DNA from: Proteromonas lacertae
Lineage: Eukaryota
Direction: 5' to 3'
Assembly (NCBI GenBank): GCA_002245135.1
Contig: NGBS01000013.1
Span: forward strand, 124,001-166,470
DNA length: 42,470 nt
Every line of letters begins with the position of its first letter. Position 1 is the first letter of the stretch. Below the pieces are notes generated by a model, which ran no database searches, was not told the DNA's origin, and saw only the letters and a list, made by a program, of their open reading frames with translations. The position numbers were made by a program, and so were the translations under genes. This document shows positions 16,533 to 42,470 of the stretch, in pieces.

Positions 16533-17190
16533 ATTCGATTTATAACACAATGACGAATTTTTAAAACGGATTTATTTTAGTAACATATATTACATCACAG
16601 TCATCACGATTATGATTTTTATCATATCACATCGTTGATATTACAATCAACTACAGTCTTTGAGTTAGAGCACAGCCTTCACTCATTTTATCCTTCATAA
16701 TTTCTTCCAATAAACTATTTGCCTTTCAAATTTCATATGTTTTTCTGCTTTATTTTCTATATTGCTTAATATTCCTTAAAAACAATCGCATTTAAGAAGA
16801 CAACAAACTGAGTAGGATTTTGGTTAATATGTAATGAAGAGCATAATTATAAACTAATACACATGAAACGATAATTACAAGGCAAAATATTTAAATAGTT
16901 TAATATTATGGATAACTTGATATATCTACTATGTTCATAATTATAATGCAATTTGATCTTATTTATTGCATGAATATTACCCATTAGTATCACAGTTTAT
17001 AAAAAAAATACAATAATTAACAAGAAAGATGACAAATAATACACAATAGTGAAGTTTTATTAATGTTAAGAAAATTGGTGCAAAAAAAAAGAGAAAATAT
17101 AATCATATTACCTCTTTTATTCTTATTCAGAGAAAAACTACAAGAAAAAATATTTGGCTTGATTGATTTTGAGATTAAAATTTCTTAAGA

Positions 17191-19797
17191 ATGGAAGAAT
17201 TTGAAAGTATAAGTGATGAATATTCTGTATATTTTACTGTTGTTTAATATGAAATAGTTGATAAGAGTGATAAAGAAGAGTGATTTAAGTGTTTTGTTGG
17301 AAGTTAAAGAAAAGAATAGTAATGATATAAAATATGTGAAGATATATAACAGAGATAAAATGAATTTGAGGTGTCTGGATCGTTTTGTTGAATCACTAGA
17401 GAAATCGAGTAATTTGAGAGTGAGCAATGTATTGATATATGATAAATACATAATTACCGAAAAATATGTGATATTGATAATGAAGAAATATGAGAGTAAC
17501 TTAGAAGAGTTAATGTTTAAGAAAGAGTTAAAAGAGATAGAAATCAATGAGATAATGTTAAAATTGATAAAAGGGATAAAGACATTGGAAGAAAATGGTA
17601 TGATATATAACAATATCAAACTGAATAATATCTTGTTTGATGAAGAAGGAGATATAATAATAGTTGATAATTTAAAATATTTGTTATTGAAAGACAGATT
17701 AAATGATATAAAAAGAGATATGGATGAGATAATATATTTAAGTCCAGAAATATTGAAAGATGGAGAAATGAATGTTGCAAGTGATATATGGAATATAGGA
17801 ATAATCTATTATAGATTATTAAGAAAAGAAATTCCATTTAAAACCAATTCAATATCTGATTTAATAAAATCCATAACAGAATTTAAATATGAAAATAATG
17901 ATAAACTAAACTATAGATACAATAATATATTATCAAGATCACTAACAGTGGAAAAGTATAATCGAATGACAATAGAAGAATTAATATTCAGAATTAGAGT
18001 TAATGTTATTATTGAATTATTGAAGAATAAAGAAAAAGAAAAAGCGAATGAAATGATGGTAGAAATGAGAGAAAACAATTCACAAAAAGAAAACTATAAA
18101 ATGAATGAGATAATAGGAGATTATTATTATGAAAATGTATATTGTTATATATGATGAAATGAATAGAAAGAATACAGAGAAGCAATTCCATATTACGAAA
18201 ATAGATTAGAATATGCTATAACAAATGATCATAAAAAATATTGTTATAATAGTTTAGGATATTGTTATTTTAAATTAGTATTTATAGATTGATATATAGT
18301 GTAGAATGAATATCAAAAATCAATTCAATATTATAAAAAAGCTTTACTATTTTCTACATTAAATGAAGAAAAAGAAATAAATAATCATGGTATAGGAAAA
18401 TGTTATTATAAAATTGTATATATATAATAATTATTCATTAGCATCGTTATATGGAAGCAATTATATATTATAAAATTGCATTAGAATATTCATCAAGAAA
18501 TAAAGATAAAGAATATAATAATAGAATGATAGGCAAATGTTATTACTATTCAGTATGTTAATCATTGTAATAATAAATAGAAAGAATATAGAGAAACAAT
18601 TCCTTACTTAGAAAGTGGCTTAGAATATTCATCTTCAAATAAAAATAAAGCATGTAATAATAATGGATTAGGTTGTTGTTATTTTTTATTAGTATATTTA
18701 TTATTGTAATATTAAGTAGAAAGAATATAGAGAAGCAATTCCTTACTTTGAAAGCGCCTTAGAATATTCATCTTCAAATAAAGAAAAAGCATGTAATAAT
18801 AATGGATTAGGTTGTTGTTATTTTTTATTAGTATATTCACCATTGTAATATTAAGTAGAAAGAATATAGAGAAGCAATTCCTTACTTTGAAAGTGCCTTA
18901 GAATATTCATCAACAAATAAAAATAAAGCATGTAATAATAATTGGTTAGGTAATTGTTATTTTGATTTAGTATATTTATTATTGTAATAATAAATAGAAA
19001 GAATATAGAGAAACAATTCCTTACTTTAAAATTGCCTTAGAATATTCATCATCAAATGAAGAAAAAGCATGTAATAATAATGGATTAGGTTGTTGTTATT
19101 TTTTATTAGTATATTCACCATTGTAATATTAAGTAGAAAGAATATAGAGAAGCAATTCCTTACTTTGAAAGTGCCTTAGAATATTCATCAACAAATGAAG
19201 AAAAAGCATGTAATAACAGAATGATAGGCAATTGTTATTTTGATTTAGTATATTTATTATTGTAATAATAAATAGAAAGAGTATAGAGAAGCAATTCCTT
19301 ACTTTGAAAGTGCCTTAGAATATTCATCAACAAATGAAAAAATACATATATATAACCGAAATCTTGGTAATTGTTATTTTGATTTAGTATATTTATTATT
19401 GTAATAATTAACTAGAAAGAATATGAAGAAGCATTGAAATATTATAATACTTCATTAGATTATTTAGAAAATGAAAAAGATAAAAATCTAGTAAAGGTAG
19501 ATATAGCAGAATGTTATTTAGAATTAGGAAATAAAGAAAAGACAATTTCATATTTGAATGAAGTAAAAGATGAATTATGTGATGATGAAACAAAATATTG
19601 GTATAATAAAGTAATGGGAAAATATTATCTTCAAATTGTATTATTTGATAATTGATATATGATATAAATAGAAAGAAAAAGAAAAGAGTAAAGAATATTT
19701 AGAAGAATCACTCAAATATGTAGATAGTCAAGTGAAGGATGATGAAGAGAAAGAAGAAATAAACAAATTATTAGAAGAATTAAACAAAATGAATTAA
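17191..19797 (+). CDS. Pseudokinase-TPR protein, copy A (~753 aa, 13 exons, 9 modular 111-nt TPR exons)
   Basis: Exon 1 is 17191-17226 and the kinase exon is 17258-18136 (YNNIKLNN in place of HRDxKxxN, DNL in place of DFG, YLSPE, SDIWNIG). 111-nt exons start at 18167, 18305, 18442, 18581, 18720, 18859, 18998, 19137 and 19276. Then a 222-nt exon 19416-19637 and a last exon 19672-19797. All introns are phase 0 and the frame is intact. Confidence 0.9.
18167..19415 (+). repeat. Exon-intron tandem array, ~139-bp unit (111-nt exon plus 26-29-nt intron), 9 units, 6 highly similar
   Basis: AAAGA(A/G)TATAGAGAA(G/A)CAATTCCTTAC recurs every 139 bp from 18581 to 19276. Confidence 0.97.
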
Positions 19798-24590: not shown

Positions 24591-26023
24591 ATGGTGTTTA
24601 ATCCTTCTTGGAAACAGTTAACAATAGCGTCCTCTATTGTGTTCTGGCTTCATGGTTCAATGGTGGCTATGGCATATAAGACTAGATATTTTAAGGAGTT
24701 CACAACATTTACCTTTGAGTTAATAGCATTTTTTCTTGTTGCTTTTGTAGTAGTGCAGAAGAATAAAACAATGGTAAGATTATTAGCAGCTATGGCGTAT
24801 TTTTAATAAATTATTTATAACTTAGGTATATTATTTGTTCAGCTTTTACTATGACAATCATGTCTGCAGCTTGTTTCTATAGAAACCCATCACAATTACC
24901 AATTCTACCAGATTATGGTTTTGACTTAATTCCAGTAATTACTCATGTAAAATTACCATTTGGGTTATATATAAATGGTCAAACAATACCAGACATACTA
25001 TTTCCAGTATTGATGTTATCAACTGTAACATTTGTTTTAATTCAAAGTAACAGGTTGATAGTGTTAAGAAGACTAGCTTTGATATGGGGTACAACAATGT
25101 TTGTAAGAACCTTCACATTATTATGTACAGCTATGCCTGATGCTTCTCCTATTTGTCAAGAAATTACAGCAGGAACTGTATTACTAAATCAAATGTCTAT
25201 CACTAATATCCTAAATCGTGCATTCTATATAATGTTAGGTGATGGAACATTTACATGTGGAGATTTAATATTTAGTGGTCATACTACCGAACTGATGGTT
25301 TGTGGAATGGTTTGGCATACTTATTATCCAATCAAAAAGAGAGGAAGTAATGTGATCAAAGCATTAGTTTGGTTTGTAATAATAATATTATTATATGTAC
25401 TAATTGGATGTAGAAGTCATTATACGATAGATTGTGTTTTAGCAGTGTATATAAATATAACAATATGGAATTTATACCATCGATTCGCTCGAGATGTTCA
25501 AATGGGAATTAAAAGCAATTTATTATGGTTTTTGGATGATTTGATTTATAGTTTTATAAACTGGTTTGAACAAGATGAAAATGATTTGAATGAATCGAGA
25601 ATGTTGAATAAAAATATGTTTAATAATGAATTTGATGGAAATAATAACAACAATAGTTATGAGTTGGTTATATATTTATTATGTAATAATAAAATAGAAG
25701 AGATTAAAGAATTGATTAGTAAAATGGATGTGAAGAATTTGAATATATTAAAAAATGGTTTGAAATATATGAATGAGAGTTATTTGAATGAAATTTATAA
25801 GTTGTATAGAAGCGAAGAGGAATTGATTAATGTAAATGAAAAGATAGATGAAGTGTCTAAAGTTATTTCAATAAAAGAAAATGAAATAAAAGTTGAAGAA
25901 GATAAGATCAAAAGAACAAGTGAATTGTATGAAAGTAAAATTAGAGAAGATGAATTATTGAAGAATAATCTAATGCAATTCTTAAATGATGGTAATATAG
26001 AAGATTGTTTGAAATTACTGTAA
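24591..26023 (+). CDS. Sphingomyelin/IPC synthase-family (PAP2_C) enzyme, paralog 1, with coiled-coil tail
   Basis: LPDYGFDLIP, CGDLIFSGHT and RSHYTIDC catalytic motifs; multiple TM segments; intron at 24797-24826. Confidence 0.88.
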
Positions 26024-26216: not shown

Positions 26217-27737
26217 ATGATTTTTTTTGTTGAAAACTTAGGAGATTTAACTCGTTATGTATTATTTACTGTAGTTATTGGGTATTTAATTCAAGCATGG
26301 TTTAAATCTCGTGGAGATGTCATGAGAGTATTTATAGCTGTAATGTATAATCAATAATATAATATATAAAATAGATATATATTTTTCGCTGCTTATTTAA
26401 TGGTGTTAGCTTCAGCAACAGCATTTTATAGAAATTTAGCTCAAATAGTCACATTGCCTGATGTAGGATTTGAATTAGTACCAAAACTAACTCTGTTACA
26501 TCTTCCATTCGGATTAACAATAACCTATGACAAAATAATAGAAGTATTTTTACCATTTTTAGTGACAATAACAACAATATTTGTTTTGTGTAGAAAAGAC
26601 AGTTTAATTCTATTAAGAAGGATAACAGTGATATGGGGTACATTAATGTATTTACGTACAGTCACTGTAATATGTACATCAGTTCCAGATCCATCTAATA
26701 TCTGTAAAGATATAGATCCATCACTATTAAAAATTTCAAATTTATCATTTTTTGAAATGATGAATAAAATAATGATTGTTATATTACCAATCAGTACAGG
26801 TAATATAACATGTGGAGATATGATATTTAGTGGACATACAACTTTAATTGTATTATGTGGAATGATATGGCATACTTACTTCATCAATGATAAAAAACTA
26901 AATAATATTCATCATCAATTACATAATAATAAATATTACTATAGAATAATTACAAGTATAATTTGGATTATTGTATTTACACTTTTATATATATTAATTG
27001 GTGTTAGAATGCATTATACAATTGATGTGTTATTAGGTATTTATATGACAATAACTTTATGGAATTCATATCATCGTGTAGGAAGAGATGTTCAAATGGG
27101 AATGAAATTCAGTACAATGTGGCTAATAGATGGATTTATTTATCCATTTGTAAAATGGTTAGAAATTGATGATGATGATATATCTAATACATTGTTATAT
27201 AAGAATGATTCTATTAATTCATTTGAATTAATTACCACTATTTGTTCACTTTCACCTGATGTTTTCAAAGAATTTATTAGTAAAATAAATGGAAATACTT
27301 TGATAAGATTACAAAGGGAGATTAAATTATGTAAAGAGAATTATTTGAACGAAAATTTCAAATTGGCGAAGACTGAAGAAATTGTGGAAGATAATAAAGA
27401 AAAATTGACAAAATTGACAAATGAAAAAATGATATTGGAGGAAGAATTAAAAGATAGAAAGTATAAGAATGAGTTGACTGTGAAATTATATGAAGCTAAA
27501 ATAAAGAGGAATGAAAAGATAAAGAATGAGTTGAAGGAGATGTTGAAGAAAGGCAATGTGAAGGAGAGTATAAAATTAGCAAAACAATTGAATCAAAGTG
27601 ATGAGAATAAAGTAGAAAATAAAATTGATGCTAATGAGTTGTTGAATAAGATTGAGATATTGGAGAATGAGATGAAACATATCAAAGAAAGTAGAAATGA
27701 ATTTTTGTTGAAGAAATCTGAAGAAGAACATAAGTAA
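26217..27737 (+). CDS. Sphingomyelin/IPC synthase-family enzyme, paralog 2, with coiled-coil tail
   Basis: LPDVGFELVP, CGDMIFSGHT and RMHYTIDV; intron at about 26346-26374, at an equivalent position to paralog 1. Confidence 0.88.
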
Positions 27738-34722: not shown

Positions 34723-34876
34723 TATTTATTATGTTATGTTTTTTGTACGGATTATCTTAATTGATCATAATTTTTAATAGTAATTTTCACAGTTTATGTA
34801 AATATGAAGTATTTACATAAAAAAACATTAAAAAAATATTTGGCTTGATTGATTTTGAGATTAAAATTTCTTAAGA

Positions 34877-37800
34877 ATGGAAGAATTTGAAAGTATAAGT
34901 GATGAATATTCTGTATATTTTACTGTTGTTTTATATGAAATAGTTGATAAGAGTGATAAAGAAGAGTGATTTAAGTGTTTTGTTGGAAGTTAAAGAAAAG
35001 AATAGTAATGATATAAAATATGTGAAGATATATAACAGAGATAAAATGAATTTGAGGTGTTTGGATCGTTTTGTTGAATCACTAGAGAAATCGAGTAATT
35101 TGAGAGTGAGCAATGTATTGATATATGATAAATACATAATTACCGAAAAATATGTGATATTGATAATGAAGAAATATGAGAGTAACTTAGAAGAGTTAAT
35201 GTTTAAGAAAGAGTTAAAAGAGATAGAAATCAATGAGATAATGTTAAAATTGATAAAAGGGATAAAGACATTGGAAGAAAATGGTATGATATATAACAAT
35301 ATCAAGCTGAATAATATGTTGTTGAATGAAGAAGGAGATATAATAATAGTTGATAATTTAAAATATTTGTTATTGAAAGACAGATTAAATGATATAAAAA
35401 GAGATATGGATGAGATAATATATTTAAGTCCAGAAATATTGAAAGATGAAGAAATGAATGTTGCAAGTGATATATGGAATATAGGAATAATCTATTATAG
35501 ATTATTAAGAAAAGAAATTCCATTTAAAACCAATTCAATATCTGATTTAATAGAATCCATAACAGAATTTAAATATGAAAATAATGATAAACTAAACGAA
35601 AGATACAATAATATATTATCAAGATCACTAACAGTGGAAAAGTATAATCGAATGACAATAGAAGAATTAATATTCAGAATTAGAGTTAATGTTATTATTG
35701 AATTATTGAAGAATAAAGAAAAAGAAAAAGCGAATGAAATGATGGTAGAAATGAGAGAAAACAATTCACAAAAAGAAAACTGTGAAATGAATGAGATAAT
35801 AGGAGATTATTATTATGAAAATGTATATTGTTATATATGATGAAATGAATAGAAAGAATACAGAGAAACAATTCCATATTACGAAAATGGATTAGAATAT
35901 GCTATAACAAATGATCATAAAAAATATTGTTATAATAGTTTAGGATATTGTTATTTTAAATTAGTATTTATAGATTGATATATAGTGTAGAATGAATATC
36001 AAAAATCAATTCAATATTATAAAAAAGCTTTACTATTTTCTACATTAAATGAAGAAAAAGAAATAAATAATCATGGTATAGGAAAATGTTATTATAAAAT
36101 TGTATATATATAATAATTATTCATTAGCATCGTTATATGGAAGCAATTATATATTATAAAATTGCATTAGAATATTCATCAAGAAATAAAGATAAAGAAT
36201 ATAATAATAGAATGATAGGCAAATGTTATTACTATTCAGTATGTTAATCATTGTAATAATAAATAGAAAGAATATAGAGAAACAATTCCTTACTTAGAAA
36301 GTGGCTTAGAATATTCATCTTCAAATAAAAATAAAGCATGTAATAATAATGGATTAGGTTGTTGTTATTTTTTATTAGTATATTTATTATTGTAATAATA
36401 AATAGAAAGAATATAGAGAAGCAATTCCTTACTTAGAAAGTGCCTTAGAATATTCATCTTCAAATGAAGAAAAAGAATATAATAATAATGGATTAGGTTG
36501 TTGTTATTTTTTATTAGTATATTTATTATTGTAATATTAAGTAGAAAGAATATAGAGAAACAATTCCTTACTTAGAAAGTGCCTTAGAATATTCATCTTC
36601 AAATAAAAATAAAGCATGTAATAATAATGGATTAGGTTGTTGTTATTTTTTATTAGTATATTTATTATTGTAATAATAAATAGAAAGAATATAGAGAAGC
36701 AATTCCTTACTTAGAAAGTGCCTTAGAATATTCATCTTCAAATGAAGAAAAAGAATATAATAATAATGGATTAGGTTGTTGTTATTTTTTATTAGTATAT
36801 TTATTATTGTAATAATAAATAGAAAGAATATAGAGAAGCAATTCCTTACTTAGAAAGTGCCTTAGAATATTCATCTTCAAATAAAAATAAAGCATGTAAT
36901 AATAATGGATTAGGTTGTTGTTATTTTTTATTAGTATATTTATTATTGTAATAATAAATAGAAAGAATATAGAGAAGCAATTCCTTACTTAGAAAGTGCC
37001 TTAGAATATTCATCTTCAAATGAAGAAAAAGAATATAATAATAATGGATTAGGTTGTTGTTATTTTTTATTAGTATATTTATTATTGTAATATTAAGTAG
37101 AAAGAATATAGAGAAGCAATTCCTTACTTTGAAAGTGCCTTAGAATATTCATCAACAAATGAAGAAAAAGAATATAATAATAATGGATTAGGTTGTTGTT
37201 ATTTTTTATTAGTATATTTATTATTGTAATAATAAATAGAAAGAATATAGAGAAGCAATTCCTTACTTAGAAAGTGCCTTAGAATATTCATCTTCAAATG
37301 AAGAAAAAGCATGTAATAATAATGGATTAGGTCGTTGTTATTTTTTATTAGTATATTTATTATTGTAATAATAAATAGAAAGAATATAGAGAAGCAATTC
37401 CTTACTTAGAAAGTGCCTTAGAATATTCATCAACAAATGAAAAAATACATATATATAACCGAAATCTTGGTAATTGTTATTTTGATTTAGTATATTTATT
37501 ATTGTAATAATTAACTAGAAAGAATATGAAGAAGCATTGAAATATTATAGTACTTCATTAGATTATTTAGAAAATGAAAAAGATAAAAATCTAGTAAAGG
37601 TAGATATAGCAGAATGTTATTTAGAATTAGGAAATAAAGAAAAGACAATTTCATATTTGAATGAAGTAAAAGATGAATTATGTGATGATGAAACAAAATA
37701 TTGGTATAATAAAGTAATGGGAAAATATTATCTTCAAATTGTATTATTTGATAATTGATATATGATATAAATAGAAAGAAAAAGAAAAGAGTAAAGAATA

Positions 37801-37900
37801 TTTAGAAGAATCACTCAAATATGTAGATAGTCAAAGAAATGATGATGAAAAGAAAGAAGAAATAAACAAATTATTAGAAGAATTAAACAAAATGAATTAG
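34877..37900 (+). CDS. Pseudokinase-TPR protein, copy B (~864 aa, 16 exons, 12 modular 111-nt TPR exons)
   Basis: Colinear with copy A at offset 17686 before the array and 18103 after it; the difference is 417 = 3 x 139. 111-nt exons start at 35853, 35991, 36128, 36267, 36406, 36545, 36684, 36823, 36962, 37101, 37240 and 37379. TAG at 37898-37900. Confidence 0.9.
35853..37518 (+). repeat. Exon-intron tandem array, ~139-bp unit, 12 units, 9 highly similar
   Basis: Exact 139-bp periodicity from 36267 to 37379. Confidence 0.97.
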
Positions 37901-38366
37901 TGATTTTCTTATTTCTTTTTCTTTTTTCAAAATTTTGATAAAACCAATAATATAAAAATAGTGTTGTATTTTTCGGTCAAAAAATATAGGTTTACATATA
38001 GGTCAAAACCTATATCTTTAGCTTGACCTTTACCTTCCTTATACTAATTATTAGTTGACCTCCTATTGAACATGAGTTAAGAAGCATATAATCTAACCAT
38101 ATATACAAAATTAATGTTTTATACATCATCTTTCAAATATCAAATTTGACCTTCGGTCGATGCACTTTTTATATTACTATTATTATATATTATAGAGGAT
38201 ATGAGTCAACAGGAATTTTAGTGTTCCTATACCCAAAATATCCAGTTCTGTTGAATAATTTTGCGGAAAAGTTCTACATCATAATCAGTATAGCTGTACA
38301 AATCTATAGTTTTTCTCTACAGTAGCAAAGCCCCGTGGTAGAACAGCTCACTACATCTATAAGTCA

Positions 38367-38381
38367 CTAACCCTAACCCTA
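38367..38381 (+). repeat. Interstitial telomere-like repeat, 2.5 x CCCTAA
   Basis: CTAACCCTAACCCTA in non-coding, otherwise very C-poor DNA. Confidence 0.6.
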
Positions 38382-38583
38382 GTTAGATCTATTTAATCAT
38401 TATTATGTAATTATTTTTTTATAATATTTGATGCATAAATCATCAAAAACATCAAGAATTTATCAAATGAATGATAAATCATCAAATAAATCAATTTTAT
38501 TTTAACAATATAAAAATTGCATCTTGAATTCATTCGACATTTTCCTGAACTTTTCAGCATAAAATATTTTTTGCTTTATTAAC

Positions 38584-39237
38584 ATGTCTCACTTACATCA
38601 AATTGTTTACGTATCTGATAGTGATAGTGATACAGATAGTGATTATGAGAGAGATATTGATAGTATCTCTAATCCAAAAATCAGAAAAATTTGTAAGACA
38701 ATTAATTTAGAAGATAAGGCTGCTGGTATCAAAAGACCAAAATATAGTATAACTTATATTATATTATAATTCATAGGTATACCAGTCACAGGTCGTCCAT
38801 TCAATCCCTTCAACCCTTATGGTTTATCTATTAAGATTGAATCACCCAATGGTGAGCCACCAAAAGATGAATCACCATTATACTCACCAACAACTCCACC
38901 TGATACAGAATCGAATGTTAGGCGTTTAATCAACTTTACTGTTCAAGAGCCTCCTCCACCACAGGACACTTTAACTTATGAGGAGATAAAGAAGCTGAGA
39001 AACGAGAGTTTAGTTGGTAATAGAATTAGAAACGGAAGAAAGAGAGCAAAGGCTGCCAGAGAAGAGTTATCGTTCAAAGCAGCAGCTGACGTAAATTTAG
39101 CTTTGGATCTTCAAAGGTATTATGATACAGTTTTTAAGAAGAAGGAGTTGGAAGATAAGTTGTTTAAGCATCATAACTTAGATACAAAACTGTTGAAGAA
39201 TATCACTAAGAAGGTATTACAGATAAAAAATAATTAA
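38584..39237 (+). CDS. Orphan protein (~207 aa): Ser/Asp-rich N-terminus, Pro-rich middle, basic helical C-terminus
   Basis: A 30-nt intron at 38747-38776 joins ORF 38584 to an open frame (SIPVTGRPFNPFNPYG...RNGRKRAKAAREELSF...) ending TAA at 39235-39237. Confidence 0.7.
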
Positions 39238-39281
39238 CTTTTATTATCAATACTTACTATAATTTGAAATTGTTTTATATT

Positions 39282-39600
39282 GAAAATTCATCTCTCATAG
39301 TATGATCTGTATATATATAATCTTTATTATTTTTGATCTATTATATTTGTCTATGTATAAGATTCTATTATTGATAATATCAAGTTAAAAGAAGAAGATT
39401 TAATATATTGATGAAATAGAAAAATTGAATAATCAGTGAGAAAATTCATCTATCATAGTATGATCTGTATATATATAATCTTTATTATTTTTGATCTATT
39501 ATATTTGTCTATGTATAAGATTCTATTATTGATAATATCAAGTTAAAAGAAGAAGATTTAATATATTGATGAAATAGAAAAATTGAATAATCAGTGAGAA
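39282..39600. repeat. Non-coding tandem duplication, 158-bp unit x2
   Basis: GAAAATTCATCT(C/A)TCATAGTATGATCTG... starts at 39282 and 39440; only one mismatch seen. Confidence 0.95.
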
Positions 39601-39689
39601 CTTTGTTTTGTCTTTATTTTATAATTGAATTTTTCGATAAGATTTTCATTTTCTTTTTTCTTGTATTTTTTGATTATTAAAATAAAAGA

Positions 39690-40403
39690 ATGAATCCAAT
39701 TCTTGAAAATGACTCAAATACAAATCCATTTGATTTAGAAAGAAGAGATAATAAATGTCGAAAATGTAATCAATATTATCCAATAAATGATTTTATGAAT
39801 GACAAAGGTAAACAATGTCAAATGTGTAGCAAATGCAGAGAAGAAAAAAGAATAAGTGTTTCTAATTATAGAAAAATAAAAAATGAAATATCTGATACTG
39901 ATATAAAAGATATAAATGATGAAAATGATTCAAATACAATTCCTTATAATTTAGTTAGCAGACCTAAAATATGCTCAAGATGTAATAAAAATAAACCAAT
40001 AGATGATTTTAAGAATGAAAAAGGTAAAGAATATAAAATGTGTAGTACTTGCAGAAAATATAAAAGAGAAAAAGCTTCTAATAATATTATAGAAAATGAA
40101 TTATCTGATATTAATATGGAAGATGCAGCTATTGATGATAAATTTAGATGTTTTAACTGTGATGGATGTTATAATGATAAATATAATGCATTTGTTATAA
40201 AAGATTTATGTAAAATGTGTTTTAAATTTCAACAAAATTATTTATATAATAGAAAGAGATATTCTAATGAAGAATTAAGTGATGATGAACAGAGATGTTA
40301 TATTTGCAGAAAAATAAAACACAAAGCAAAGATGCAGTATAATAATAAGTGTCATAAATGTGTAAGACATTATTTGCATAAACTAAATAAAAAAGCTATA
40401 TAA
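39690..40403 (+). CDS. Intronless Cys-rich protein with four CxxC...CxxC zinc-binding modules, the first two being internal duplicates
   Basis: KCRKCNQYYPINDF.NDKGKQCQMCSKCR and KICSRCNKNKPIDDF.NEKGKEYKMCSTCR, then CFNC...CKMC and CYIC...CHKC. Confidence 0.75.
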   Translation: MNPILENDSNTNPFDLERRDNKCRKCNQYYPINDFMNDKGKQCQMCSKCREEKRISVSNYRKIKNEISDTDIKDINDENDSNTIPYNLVSRPKICSRCNKNKPIDDFKNEKGKEYKMCSTCRKYKREKASNNIIENELSDINMEDAAIDDKFRCFNCDGCYNDKYNAFVIKDLCKMCFKFQQNYLYNRKRYSNEELSDDEQRCYICRKIKHKAKMQYNNKCHKCVRHYLHKLNKKAI

Positions 40404-40511
40404 CACTTATATAAAAACATTGGTTTTCATTTATTCATTTTATTAGTTTCTTTTATATTTTCATATTAATTTCACTAGTCTTTTTCTTACAAACTATTTA
40501 TTATTTATAAC

Positions 40512-41403
40512 ATGAATTCAGAACCAAATTATAATAACATTAGTAGCAATGATGAATCAAATATTCTTCATTCTATTGCTTCAACAAACAAGCATGATAA
40601 TGCATTATGTAAAGAAGATGGAGATGTCATAAACACCAAAAGAAGTTGCTATTCCAAAGAAAAAGATGATACTTTATACAATAATGTTAATGTAACTCAA
40701 TGGAAGAAATTGTTAATATTATCTGATAATGTTTATAAATTTATAGAAGAAAAGATAAATAATTGTTACAATAAGAATGATTCATCAGTATATAGCGAAT
40801 ATGCCATTTCAAGATATATTAATGCTCTTAATAATTTCTTTACATCTTTAGTGAATAATAATAGTTATATAAATAATATTATTTTTGAGGAAATTGATGA
40901 TGCATTAAATATACCGCCTGTTAGCGTAGGCAATAATATTAATATTGATTCAAAAATATTATTTAACATTAAAGAAAAAGAAATTCTAATAATGATAACT
41001 CCATCAAGAGAAAGAGAAACACTAAAAGAAAAAACATAAATGATTCTTCTAAGAATATATCAAATGAAATAGATTCTGCGCAACAAAAAGACTATCTTCA
41101 GATAGACCAAATTGAATCAAAAAGCCAAGAAAATATTAATATTGATGATTTAATTAATCAGCCACCTGTATTGCCTATAAATACATTTCATAAAACAAAT
41201 ATTGAAGATACAAAGAATAATCTAATTGTTAATGAAAACGAAACTAATATAGAGAATATAAAAGATAAATAGAGACATTGCAGCAACACCTTAATCAATA
41301 CAGAGGATGTGAAATTTATTCAAACTCATATGATGATTCAAATAATATTGAATTTAGTCCAATTCTATGTAATGATATGTTAAATTTAAGTGATATATGG
41401 TAA
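40512..41403 (+). CDS. Orphan Asn-rich protein broken by two apparent -1 shifts in A-runs (pseudogene or assembly error)
   Basis: ORF 40512-41039 continues in shifted frames after about 40982 and 41268 to TAA at 41401-41403. DDALNIPPV and DDLINQPPV on either side of the first shift suggest a single protein. Confidence 0.5.
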
Positions 41404-41540
41404 CAATACGCATGTAATTATAATTTTAAGTTTATTGATTCTATATAATGTATTATACTATTGGGTAAAATCATCTGTATAATATACAAAAAGTATTATT
41501 CCATGTTTTCTTTAGTTATTTTTATTTTTTTGTTTATAAA

Positions 41541-41897
41541 ATGCAGAGTTCATATAAGTTTTTATCATGGTTATACACAATATTTGAATCACTAAAAAGA
41601 AAAATATTTTCTCAGTCAAACGAGCAACAACCGCAATCTGAATCTTTAGCTGATCAATTGAGATATAATGAAATGCTAAAACATGTTAAAGATGAAAAAT
41701 TGAGAGAAAAAAGAAGAAGACATAATATACGAGCTAGGAACGGATTAGATGAAGGATTCATTTACAGCGAGGATCCAGAAGAATTTGATGAACTAATGGA
41801 TAGGTACATTACAAAGCATGATATAAAAGCAAAAAAAGAAATAAAAGAAAAATTTGGATTGGACTTAGACAAAGTAATCTACGGATTATATCATTAA
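41541..41897 (+). CDS. Orphan 118-aa intronless protein
   Basis: ATG after AAAA with natural-looking composition; no family recognised. Confidence 0.55.
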   Translation: MQSSYKFLSWLYTIFESLKRKIFSQSNEQQPQSESLADQLRYNEMLKHVKDEKLREKRRRHNIRARNGLDEGFIYSEDPEEFDELMDRYITKHDIKAKKEIKEKFGLDLDKVIYGLYH

Positions 41898-42080
41898 TTA
41901 ATGTCTCAATTAATTAGTCTCATTCTGATATTATTATATTGTGTTAGTCGTAACATTAACTCCCAAAATGAATATTTTTAGTATATTATTAAAGTTAGTT
42001 TATATTTATTTAAATCATAATACCATATATAGTTTTAATCAAATTCCCAATCATCTAATTGAAATAAAATATCATCATTT

Positions 42081-42437
42081 TCATGATCTTTTTAAACTTT
42101 TTATTAATTTTTGATAACTTTTCAAATCAAATTTTCTCTTATATCTTTTATTTAATGAACCTTTACCATATCTGACAGGACCATACTGTGGTGAATAAGA
42201 TTCATCACCTTTCATGTTTCTTCTACATTTTATACATGACTCTTCAATTAATTCTTCAGTATCTTTAGGATAATATTTTAAATCTTCAAGTAAATATTTA
42301 TCATCATCATAACAGAAAAACCATCTTCTAATAATTTGTGTTTTACATATACAATATGCTATATCTTTAGCTTCATTATGTTTTACTTCTAAATATGTAT
42401 CAATTAGTTCATAACAAATTCTATCATAAATACTCAT
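42081..42437 (-). CDS. Orphan 118-aa intronless protein with CxC and CxxC pairs
   Basis: YCICK...SCIKCRR and a basic C-terminus; no family recognised. Confidence 0.55.
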   Translation of the reverse strand: MSIYDRICYELIDTYLEVKHNEAKDIAYCICKTQIIRRWFFCYDDDKYLLEDLKYYPKDTEELIEESCIKCRRNMKGDESYSPQYGPVRYGKGSLNKRYKRKFDLKSYQKLIKSLKRS

Positions 42438-42470
42438 CTCACCTTTAATATCATGAAAAAGATAACTGAT

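Follow-up and report, generated by a model that had tools for sequence, protein, structure and literature searches.

Gene layout, repeat register and head domain

The window analysed here, a 42,470-nt stretch of Proteromonas lacertae DNA with a GC content of 25%, contains two paralogous genes, A (17191–19797) and B (34877–37900), each of which encodes a kinase-fold domain without the catalytic aspartate followed by TPR-like modules, nine in A versus 12 in B. The modular unit is a phase-0 exon of 111 nt (37 codons) together with an intron of 26–30 nt. All the exons of gene A are in phase 0 (36 nt, 879 nt, nine of 111 nt, 222 nt and 126 nt) and are separated by GT–AG introns of 26–34 nt; its repeat region (18167–19386) comprises the nine 111-nt exons, with GT–AG introns of 26–28 nt between them. 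Both the exon–intron layout and the splicing of the two genes are predicted, the reading frames being open and the GT–AG ends kept through 12 introns in A and 15 in B. The features are as follows:

17191–17226, + strand: predicted exon 1 of gene A, 12 codons including the start codon; the copy B exon is identical
17227–17257, + strand: intron 1 of gene A, 31 nt, GT–AG
17258–18136, + strand: exon 2 of gene A, kinase-fold domain (Pfam Pkinase, motifs, PLK2 alignment), linker and first helix A
18167–18552, + strand: divergent flanking modules A1–A3 (exons 18167–18277, 18305–18415 and 18442–18552), with groove sites as in B1–B3
18581–19247, + strand: homogenised, mosaic inner modules A4–A8 (exons starting at 18581, 18720, 18859, 18998 and 19137)
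19276–19386, + strand: last 37-residue module, A9, with a core-type helix B and a distinct helix A
19416–19637, + strand: 222-nt exon of gene A, two further units with no intron between them, modelled as four helices (B–A–B–A)
19672–19797, + strand: last exon of gene A, capping helix and stop codon, at which the A/B homology stops
34877–35822, + strand: exon 1 of gene B (34877–34912), intron and kinase-fold exon (34944–35822)
35853–37489, + strand: modules B1–B12 of gene B, twelve 111-nt exons
37519–37900, + strand: 222-nt exon (37519–37740) and last exon (37775–37900) of gene B

In A4–A8, the 111-nt exons and their 28-nt introns give a period of 139 nt. The homology between the two genes runs from about 45 nt 5' of the start codon to the stop codon, introns included (17145–19797 versus 34831–37900), and the flanks are unrelated. 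Limited to the gene as it is, this similarity speaks less for a segmental duplication than for ectopic conversion that is still going on or for the transfer of a gene-sized piece. Among the matches listed for the proteasome ATPase of the window, identity reaches 78% at most and the near ones that bear a name come mainly from oomycetes, chrysophytes and brown algae, which makes a stramenopile host likely. In its low GC content, short and variable introns and normal stop codons, the window resembles a low-GC lineage of Blastocystis (PMC12129017, in part).

Each 111-nt exon encodes TPR positions 15–37 followed by positions 1–14 of the next repeat. The initial annotation had read these exons as helix B, a loop and then the next helix A, which we confirmed for the nine exons of 18167–19386; its position numbering was also correct, since G8, Y11, A20, Y/F/L24 and A27 keep the TPR spacing and the Pfam TPR_1 register agrees (profile positions 15–33 aligned to exon residues 1–19). 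Note that the TPR_1 score, obtained with single exons only, was 23.4 bits versus a cut-off of 27.8, and that one of the three repeat exons scanned gave no match. The period is 37 residues, not the standard 34 of TPRs, with one more turn at the N-terminal end of helix A. A structural model of the 222-nt exon (74 residues, pLDDT 90.6) displays stacked antiparallel helix pairs (helices 2–16, 20–36, 40–51 and 57–73), in which helix A is predicted to begin at position 34 and to be lengthened by the three extra residues. Positions 35 and 36 would thus belong to the N-terminal turn of the lengthened helix, on the groove side. The model of a homologous fragment from another assembly, P0199, shows the same helix A start, with confidence only over residues 20–80. 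A Foldseek search with the model of the 222-nt exon returned mostly TPR proteins as its best rows, none of them at E ≤ 0.001. In A1 (18203–18205), an arginine occupies TPR position 27, where a small residue is usual; B1 has a glycine there.

Exon 2 of gene A matches Pfam Pkinase with E = 9e-23. However, both features of an active Ser/Thr protein kinase, the glycine-rich loop and the HRD aspartate, are absent: there is no glycine in the first 45 residues of the domain, and motif reading together with alignment to PLK2 places YNN at HRD and DNL at DFG. The VAIK-type lysine and the DFG-type aspartate are retained. Since the glycine loop is missing, HRD reads as YNN and DFG as DNL, the head domain is likely to be a catalytically dead pseudokinase. 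It is the sole non-repeat domain of the protein, NB-ARC and NACHT being absent. The kinase exons of A (17258–18136) and B (34944–35822) differ by 11 nucleotide changes, nine non-synonymous and two synonymous, as expected for a coding sequence evolving without constraint. When the kinase exon was compared with longer proteins, four matches were obtained, with 24–27% identity; the only one of them with TPRs, P0001, was set aside as it reads as an unrelated kinase of prokaryote type with intact catalytic motifs. This argues only weakly that relatives are absent. The ESM Atlas gave nothing but generic kinase clusters, no sequencing run came up for 17150–18560, and metagenome scans for relatives yielded none of 57 candidates in one case and, in another, three of 200 that passed, none of them a family member.

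Variability at the TPR groove positions

The seven helix-A variants that had been listed for copy A are all present, with ACNNNGLGCCYFLL in three of nine modules, as are the two additional variants of copy B, EYNNNGLGCCYFLL in four of 12 modules and ACNNNGLGRCYFLL in one of 12. The initial annotation had further proposed that the changes cluster at positions 1–2, 5, 6, 9 and 13. In place of this post hoc set, we used for the entropy tests the published ligand-binding positions of TPRs, namely 2, 5, 6, 9, 12 and 13 (PMC1261162, in part). The p-values given below are optimistic, as shared tracts make positions non-independent. Over all 21 modules, the mean entropy was 1.46 bits at the groove versus 0.71 bits at the other 31 positions (p = 0.003; p = 0.009 versus non-consensus positions) and versus 0.67 bits at the eight exposed helix-B positions (p = 0.004, and 0.004–0.017 across tests). 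The enrichment was found in copy A by itself (1.57 versus 0.75, p = 0.002) and in the 13 inner modules (0.61 versus 0.23, p = 0.02); allele counts in five lineage representatives gave p = 0.015–0.067, the weakest test lying at 0.055–0.067. An analysis independent of any position set pointed the same way: the entropy moment of helix A lies at 199–209 degrees (p = 0.003–0.007), the groove set being at 184 and the core residues at 30, and helix B has no entropy moment (p = 0.09–0.84). A uniform spread of variable sites, which would have contradicted the proposed clustering, is rejected, and the variable sites fall on the predicted concave face, a placement that rests on TPR numbering and helical phase.

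The clustering is thus confirmed, with some corrections. The groove is enriched in variable sites, but position 1 lies outside the published set and groove position 12 is conserved (F/Y). Furthermore, positions 36, 33, 24, 26, 35 and 20 are as variable as some groove sites; 33, 24, 26 and 20 are not on the groove side, unlike 35 and 36. Similarly, the good conservation ascribed to helix B applies to the core and the last module only, modules 2 and 3 differing from the core at 12 of 20 and 8 of 20 positions of helix B plus loop.

As such, the groove pattern is no surprise in TPRs, since any set of them tends to be highly variable at these positions (PMC1261162, in part). Among 6,887 TPRs, Magliery and Regan found positions 2, 5, 9, 12, 13, 33 and 34 to be the most variable (PMC1261162, in part); counted back from helix A, position 36 of our modules corresponds to their position 33. 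Their pattern spans unrelated proteins, whereas the one described here arises inside a single homogenised array, where positions 12 and 37 are conserved.

The TPR-like family and its intron position recur in other assemblies. A profile built from ten exon-level units matched 417 representatives at E ≤ 0.001; among the 150 matches listed, eight short Logan fragments are evident family members, and one more came from another search. Their period is likewise 37 residues, and in 10 of the 18 extracted rows a valine stands exactly at the exon end of the window genes, as expected from a read-through GT donor. Once three cap-type rows and one duplicate had been dropped, 14 internal-type rows were analysed, one of which is probably shifted in register over its first half. 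Their most variable positions are 2, 22, 6, 9 and 5, with groove enrichment at p = 0.002 versus non-consensus sites and p = 0.052 versus exposed helix B, and their variability profile correlates with that of the window (Spearman 0.66). In P0132, two adjacent modules differ at 12 sites in positions 34–14 and at three in positions 15–33, and two of its read-through introns are nearly the same. In P0151, P0155 and P0199, at least two 37-residue units run on without an intervening intron, as in the 222-nt exon of the window, so that an intron is not found at every repeat boundary. The long matches among the 150 listed, mostly with a period of 40 or 42 residues and none with 36–38, were left out.

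A recombinant core and tests of selection on groove and scaffold

The 13 inner units contain 31 segregating sites, and 62 of the 190 informative site pairs fail the four-gamete test, with an incompatibility that increases with distance (p = 0.004): the core is a recombinant mosaic. Mutual differences amount to 0–10 of 111 nt among B4–B11 and to 6–21 among A4–A8, and 16 of the 21 exons are distinct. The B5, B7 and B9 exons are identical, and A5 pairs up with A7 and A6 with A8, which points to the duplication of two-unit blocks; A5 and A7 also share an intron variant. Most core variants are patches in common with flanking module 3 and the last module. More specifically, (i) A8 carries the module 3 codons at positions 5–8, including a synonymous GGC; (ii) A7 carries those at positions 25–26; (iii) N9 and D13 are common to A6, A8 and the last module; (iv) the EY variant of copy B matches module 3. 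For W6 in A6 and R9 in B11, no donor module exists in the window, elsewhere in which we found no further module or remnant. Copy B is near-uniform at the groove in its core, except for position 2 and the single R9, and modules 1–4 and the last one have identical groove sites in A and B. Compared with the core, the last module shows differences at 24 of the 51 nt of helix A, as against 4 of 60 (A) and 2 of 60 (B) for helix B plus loop, and its intron is core-like and near-identical. No such asymmetry between helix A and helix B was found at the nucleotide level when modules 1–3 were compared with the core (p = 0.5–1.0).

Codon models applied to the 16 distinct exons gave a dN/dS of 1.00–1.05 at the groove and 0.35–0.36 elsewhere; the models presuppose a single tree, an assumption that recombination in the data breaks. 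A single ratio is rejected (p = 6e-5), and the groove value is indistinguishable from 1 (p = 0.9–1.0), with a rough profile of about 0.5 to 2. The comparison of M1a with M2a, which has low power on these exons, was not significant (p = 0.72 and 1.0), and even the six sites singled out by the initial annotation gave 1.33, not different from 1. That annotation had the scaffold homogenised and the specificity residues diversifying. The first half stands in that the scaffold is constrained and the groove is not; diversifying selection, for which a site-model dN/dS was to speak, is unsupported, the groove value being compatible with a ratio at or below 1, which counts against it. For the five lineage representatives, the background dN/dS was 0.08–0.15 and the groove value unidentifiable (0.4–16; p versus 1 of 0.12–0.44); an estimate of about 15 was rejected as saturation, helix A alone having given 0.4–0.5.

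Nucleotide diversity in the core, a tree-free measure, favours the initial annotation. In the 13 inner modules, groove pi-N is 2.0–3.1 times the synonymous-plus-intron level (bootstrap P(ratio ≤ 1) of 0.006–0.05), and exposed helix-B pi-N is about one-fifth of neutral or less. However, when tracts were imported neutrally from the flanking modules with no preference, the observed core ratio of 2.6 was reached in 27–46% of runs (10 non-redundant inner units, about 395 runs per setting, a result obtained in seven of eight settings), as against 6% in a simulation without tracts; the joint pattern with a quiet helix B was reproduced in 6–14% of the tract simulations. We therefore rejected the bootstrap excess as proof of selection. 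Mild positive selection at the groove is possible but is not needed for the data.

The position-matched exons of the two genes are separated by 17.2 non-synonymous and 3.8 synonymous changes, and no groove site is affected. The resulting pN/pS of 1.09 fits 1; 0.2 is rejected (p = 0.0009) and 0.36 is borderline (p = 0.035), which makes normal constraint on both copies less convincing. A ratio of this size is what a gene released from constraint over its whole length would show, more than one maintained as a sensor.

Candidate explanations, related systems and surroundings

The explanation that we favour, with somewhat better than even confidence, is a concerted evolution of exon–intron cassettes in which the scaffold is under purifying selection and the groove changes at about the neutral rate. 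The 139-bp exon–intron unit would be the recombining element and unequal crossover would alter repeat number; as each phase-0 exon carries helix B, the loop and the next helix A, the gain or loss of whole units would keep frame and fold. Conversion patches of about 5–15 nt, coming from module 3, the last module or unseen paralogues, would rewrite groove residues, while purifying selection would hold the helical scaffold and leave the groove free to change. The protein is probably a ligand-sensing scaffold, its TPR groove binding a peptide and its pseudokinase relaying the signal, a receptor or sensor function suggested by TPR biology.

Alternatively, the genes could belong to a family of receptors that diversify under positive or balancing selection, new groove residues being advantageous and the conversion patches that bring them in being retained, as happens in the het-e-like NLRs of fungi. 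We consider this a serious contender, though an unlikely one. The core pi-N excess would fit, as would the multi-nucleotide codon differences at positions 6, 9 and 13, the resistance of helix A of the last module to homogenisation, the same helix asymmetry in P0132, the differences between A and B in repeat number and core groove residues, and the precedents of PMC4986451 and PMC3341825 (both in part). Yet the groove dN/dS and the M1a–M2a comparison give it no support, the core ratio is explained by neutral tract import, and copy B has expanded near-identical grooves, the flanking modules being unchanged between A and B. Even less probable, in our view, is a young redundant duplicate under relaxed selection, with the 139-bp unit behaving as a minisatellite and the groove pattern reflecting old divergence and functionless reshuffling. 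The pN/pS between A and B is what it predicts, and the arginine at position 27 of A1 and the missing catalytic aspartate agree with it; against it stand the open frames and GT–AG ends through all the introns of both genes, the low exposed helix-B pi-N in the core and the recurrence of family and intron position in other assemblies. Finally, an assembly artefact, be it a haplotype duplication or a mis-resolved tandem array, is a very improbable source of copy B or of the repeat numbers, although the high identity of the units might suggest it, given the unrelated flanks with homology limited to the gene, 21 substitutions in non-repeat and position-matched exons, and the distinctness of most inner units.

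Repeat sensors that evolve in concert have been described before, in fungal NLRs and in the exon arrays of brown algae; what is new here is a different head domain, a likely pseudokinase, and a tiny intron in each repeat unit, which provides a built-in neutral yardstick. The Ectocarpus NB-ARC–TPR genes (Zambounis et al., PMC3341825, in part) are likewise stramenopile candidate receptors in which a signalling domain precedes a TPR array, with one repeat per phase-0 exon and a variable repeat number. They differ in their NB-ARC head, as compared with the kinase fold found here, and in their exons, which encode 42 residues versus 37 in the 21 equal, predicted phase-0 exons of 111 nt described above; unlike theirs, the introns of 26–30 nt are homogenised and leave no room for spare exons (PMC3341825, in part). 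Site models supported selection in 124 Ectocarpus exons (PMC3341825, in part), a result that our 16 exons did not reproduce. Fungal NLRs with high internal conservation, such as HET-E (WD40) and Podospora Pa_2_10340 (TPR), share with the genes of the window near-identical repeats, repeat-number variation, inter-repeat exchange and variable sites on the concave TPR face (PMC4986451, PMC13449251, both in part). In contrast, they possess a NACHT or NB-ARC domain, absent here, positive selection is established in them and undemonstrated here, the repeat unit includes an intron here, and the difference in repeat number that we observed (9 versus 12) is between paralogues (PMC4986451, PMC13449251, both in part). 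Because they lack an NTPase, the pseudokinase–TPR genes are members of neither the Ectocarpus nor the fungal kind. The 90-bp LRR exon arrays of Tetrahymena are also protist exon–intron repeat units amplified by unequal crossover, some of them fused to kinases as here; their LRR repeats, phase-2 introns and association with retrotransposons have no counterpart in the window (PMC6564038, in part).

We found no earlier description of the kinase–TPR architecture in the open-licence literature: the main text of PMC12129017 mentions neither TPRs nor kinases, its supplement giving only domain counts, and the kinase and TPR sections of PMC5608401 do not describe it (both in part). The genes point to a possible family of receptors in a lineage for which that literature describes no recognition system. 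With modules from the whole genome, the intron yardstick would make it possible to distinguish directly between selection for groove changes and simple tolerance of them, a distinction that is hard to draw when the repeat units have no intron. A broader picture, which we offer as speculative and rather doubtful, would make the dispersed pseudokinase–TPR family the variable-receptor repertoire of a low-GC stramenopile: cassettes would determine the length of the solenoid, micro-conversion drawing on a common pool of modules would rewrite the groove, and selection by viruses, bacteria or nonself cells would keep the useful surfaces, in an NLR-like system devoid of a STAND NTPase.

As regards the surroundings, the region 3' of copy B (37901–42470) looks unlike the housekeeping block at the left of the window. 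The four ORFs scanned in it had no Pfam match; it contains TAACCC twice at 38368, a two-copy repeat of 158 bp (39282–39600) and an ORF rich in cysteine pairs (39681–40403). Elsewhere, a two-copy repeat of 327 bp (8113–8781, 96% match) lies within an acidic low-complexity ORF (7821–8837), and two adjoining genes (24821–26023 and 26370–27737), each with a PAP2_C domain followed by a charged tail, are likely a tandem pair.
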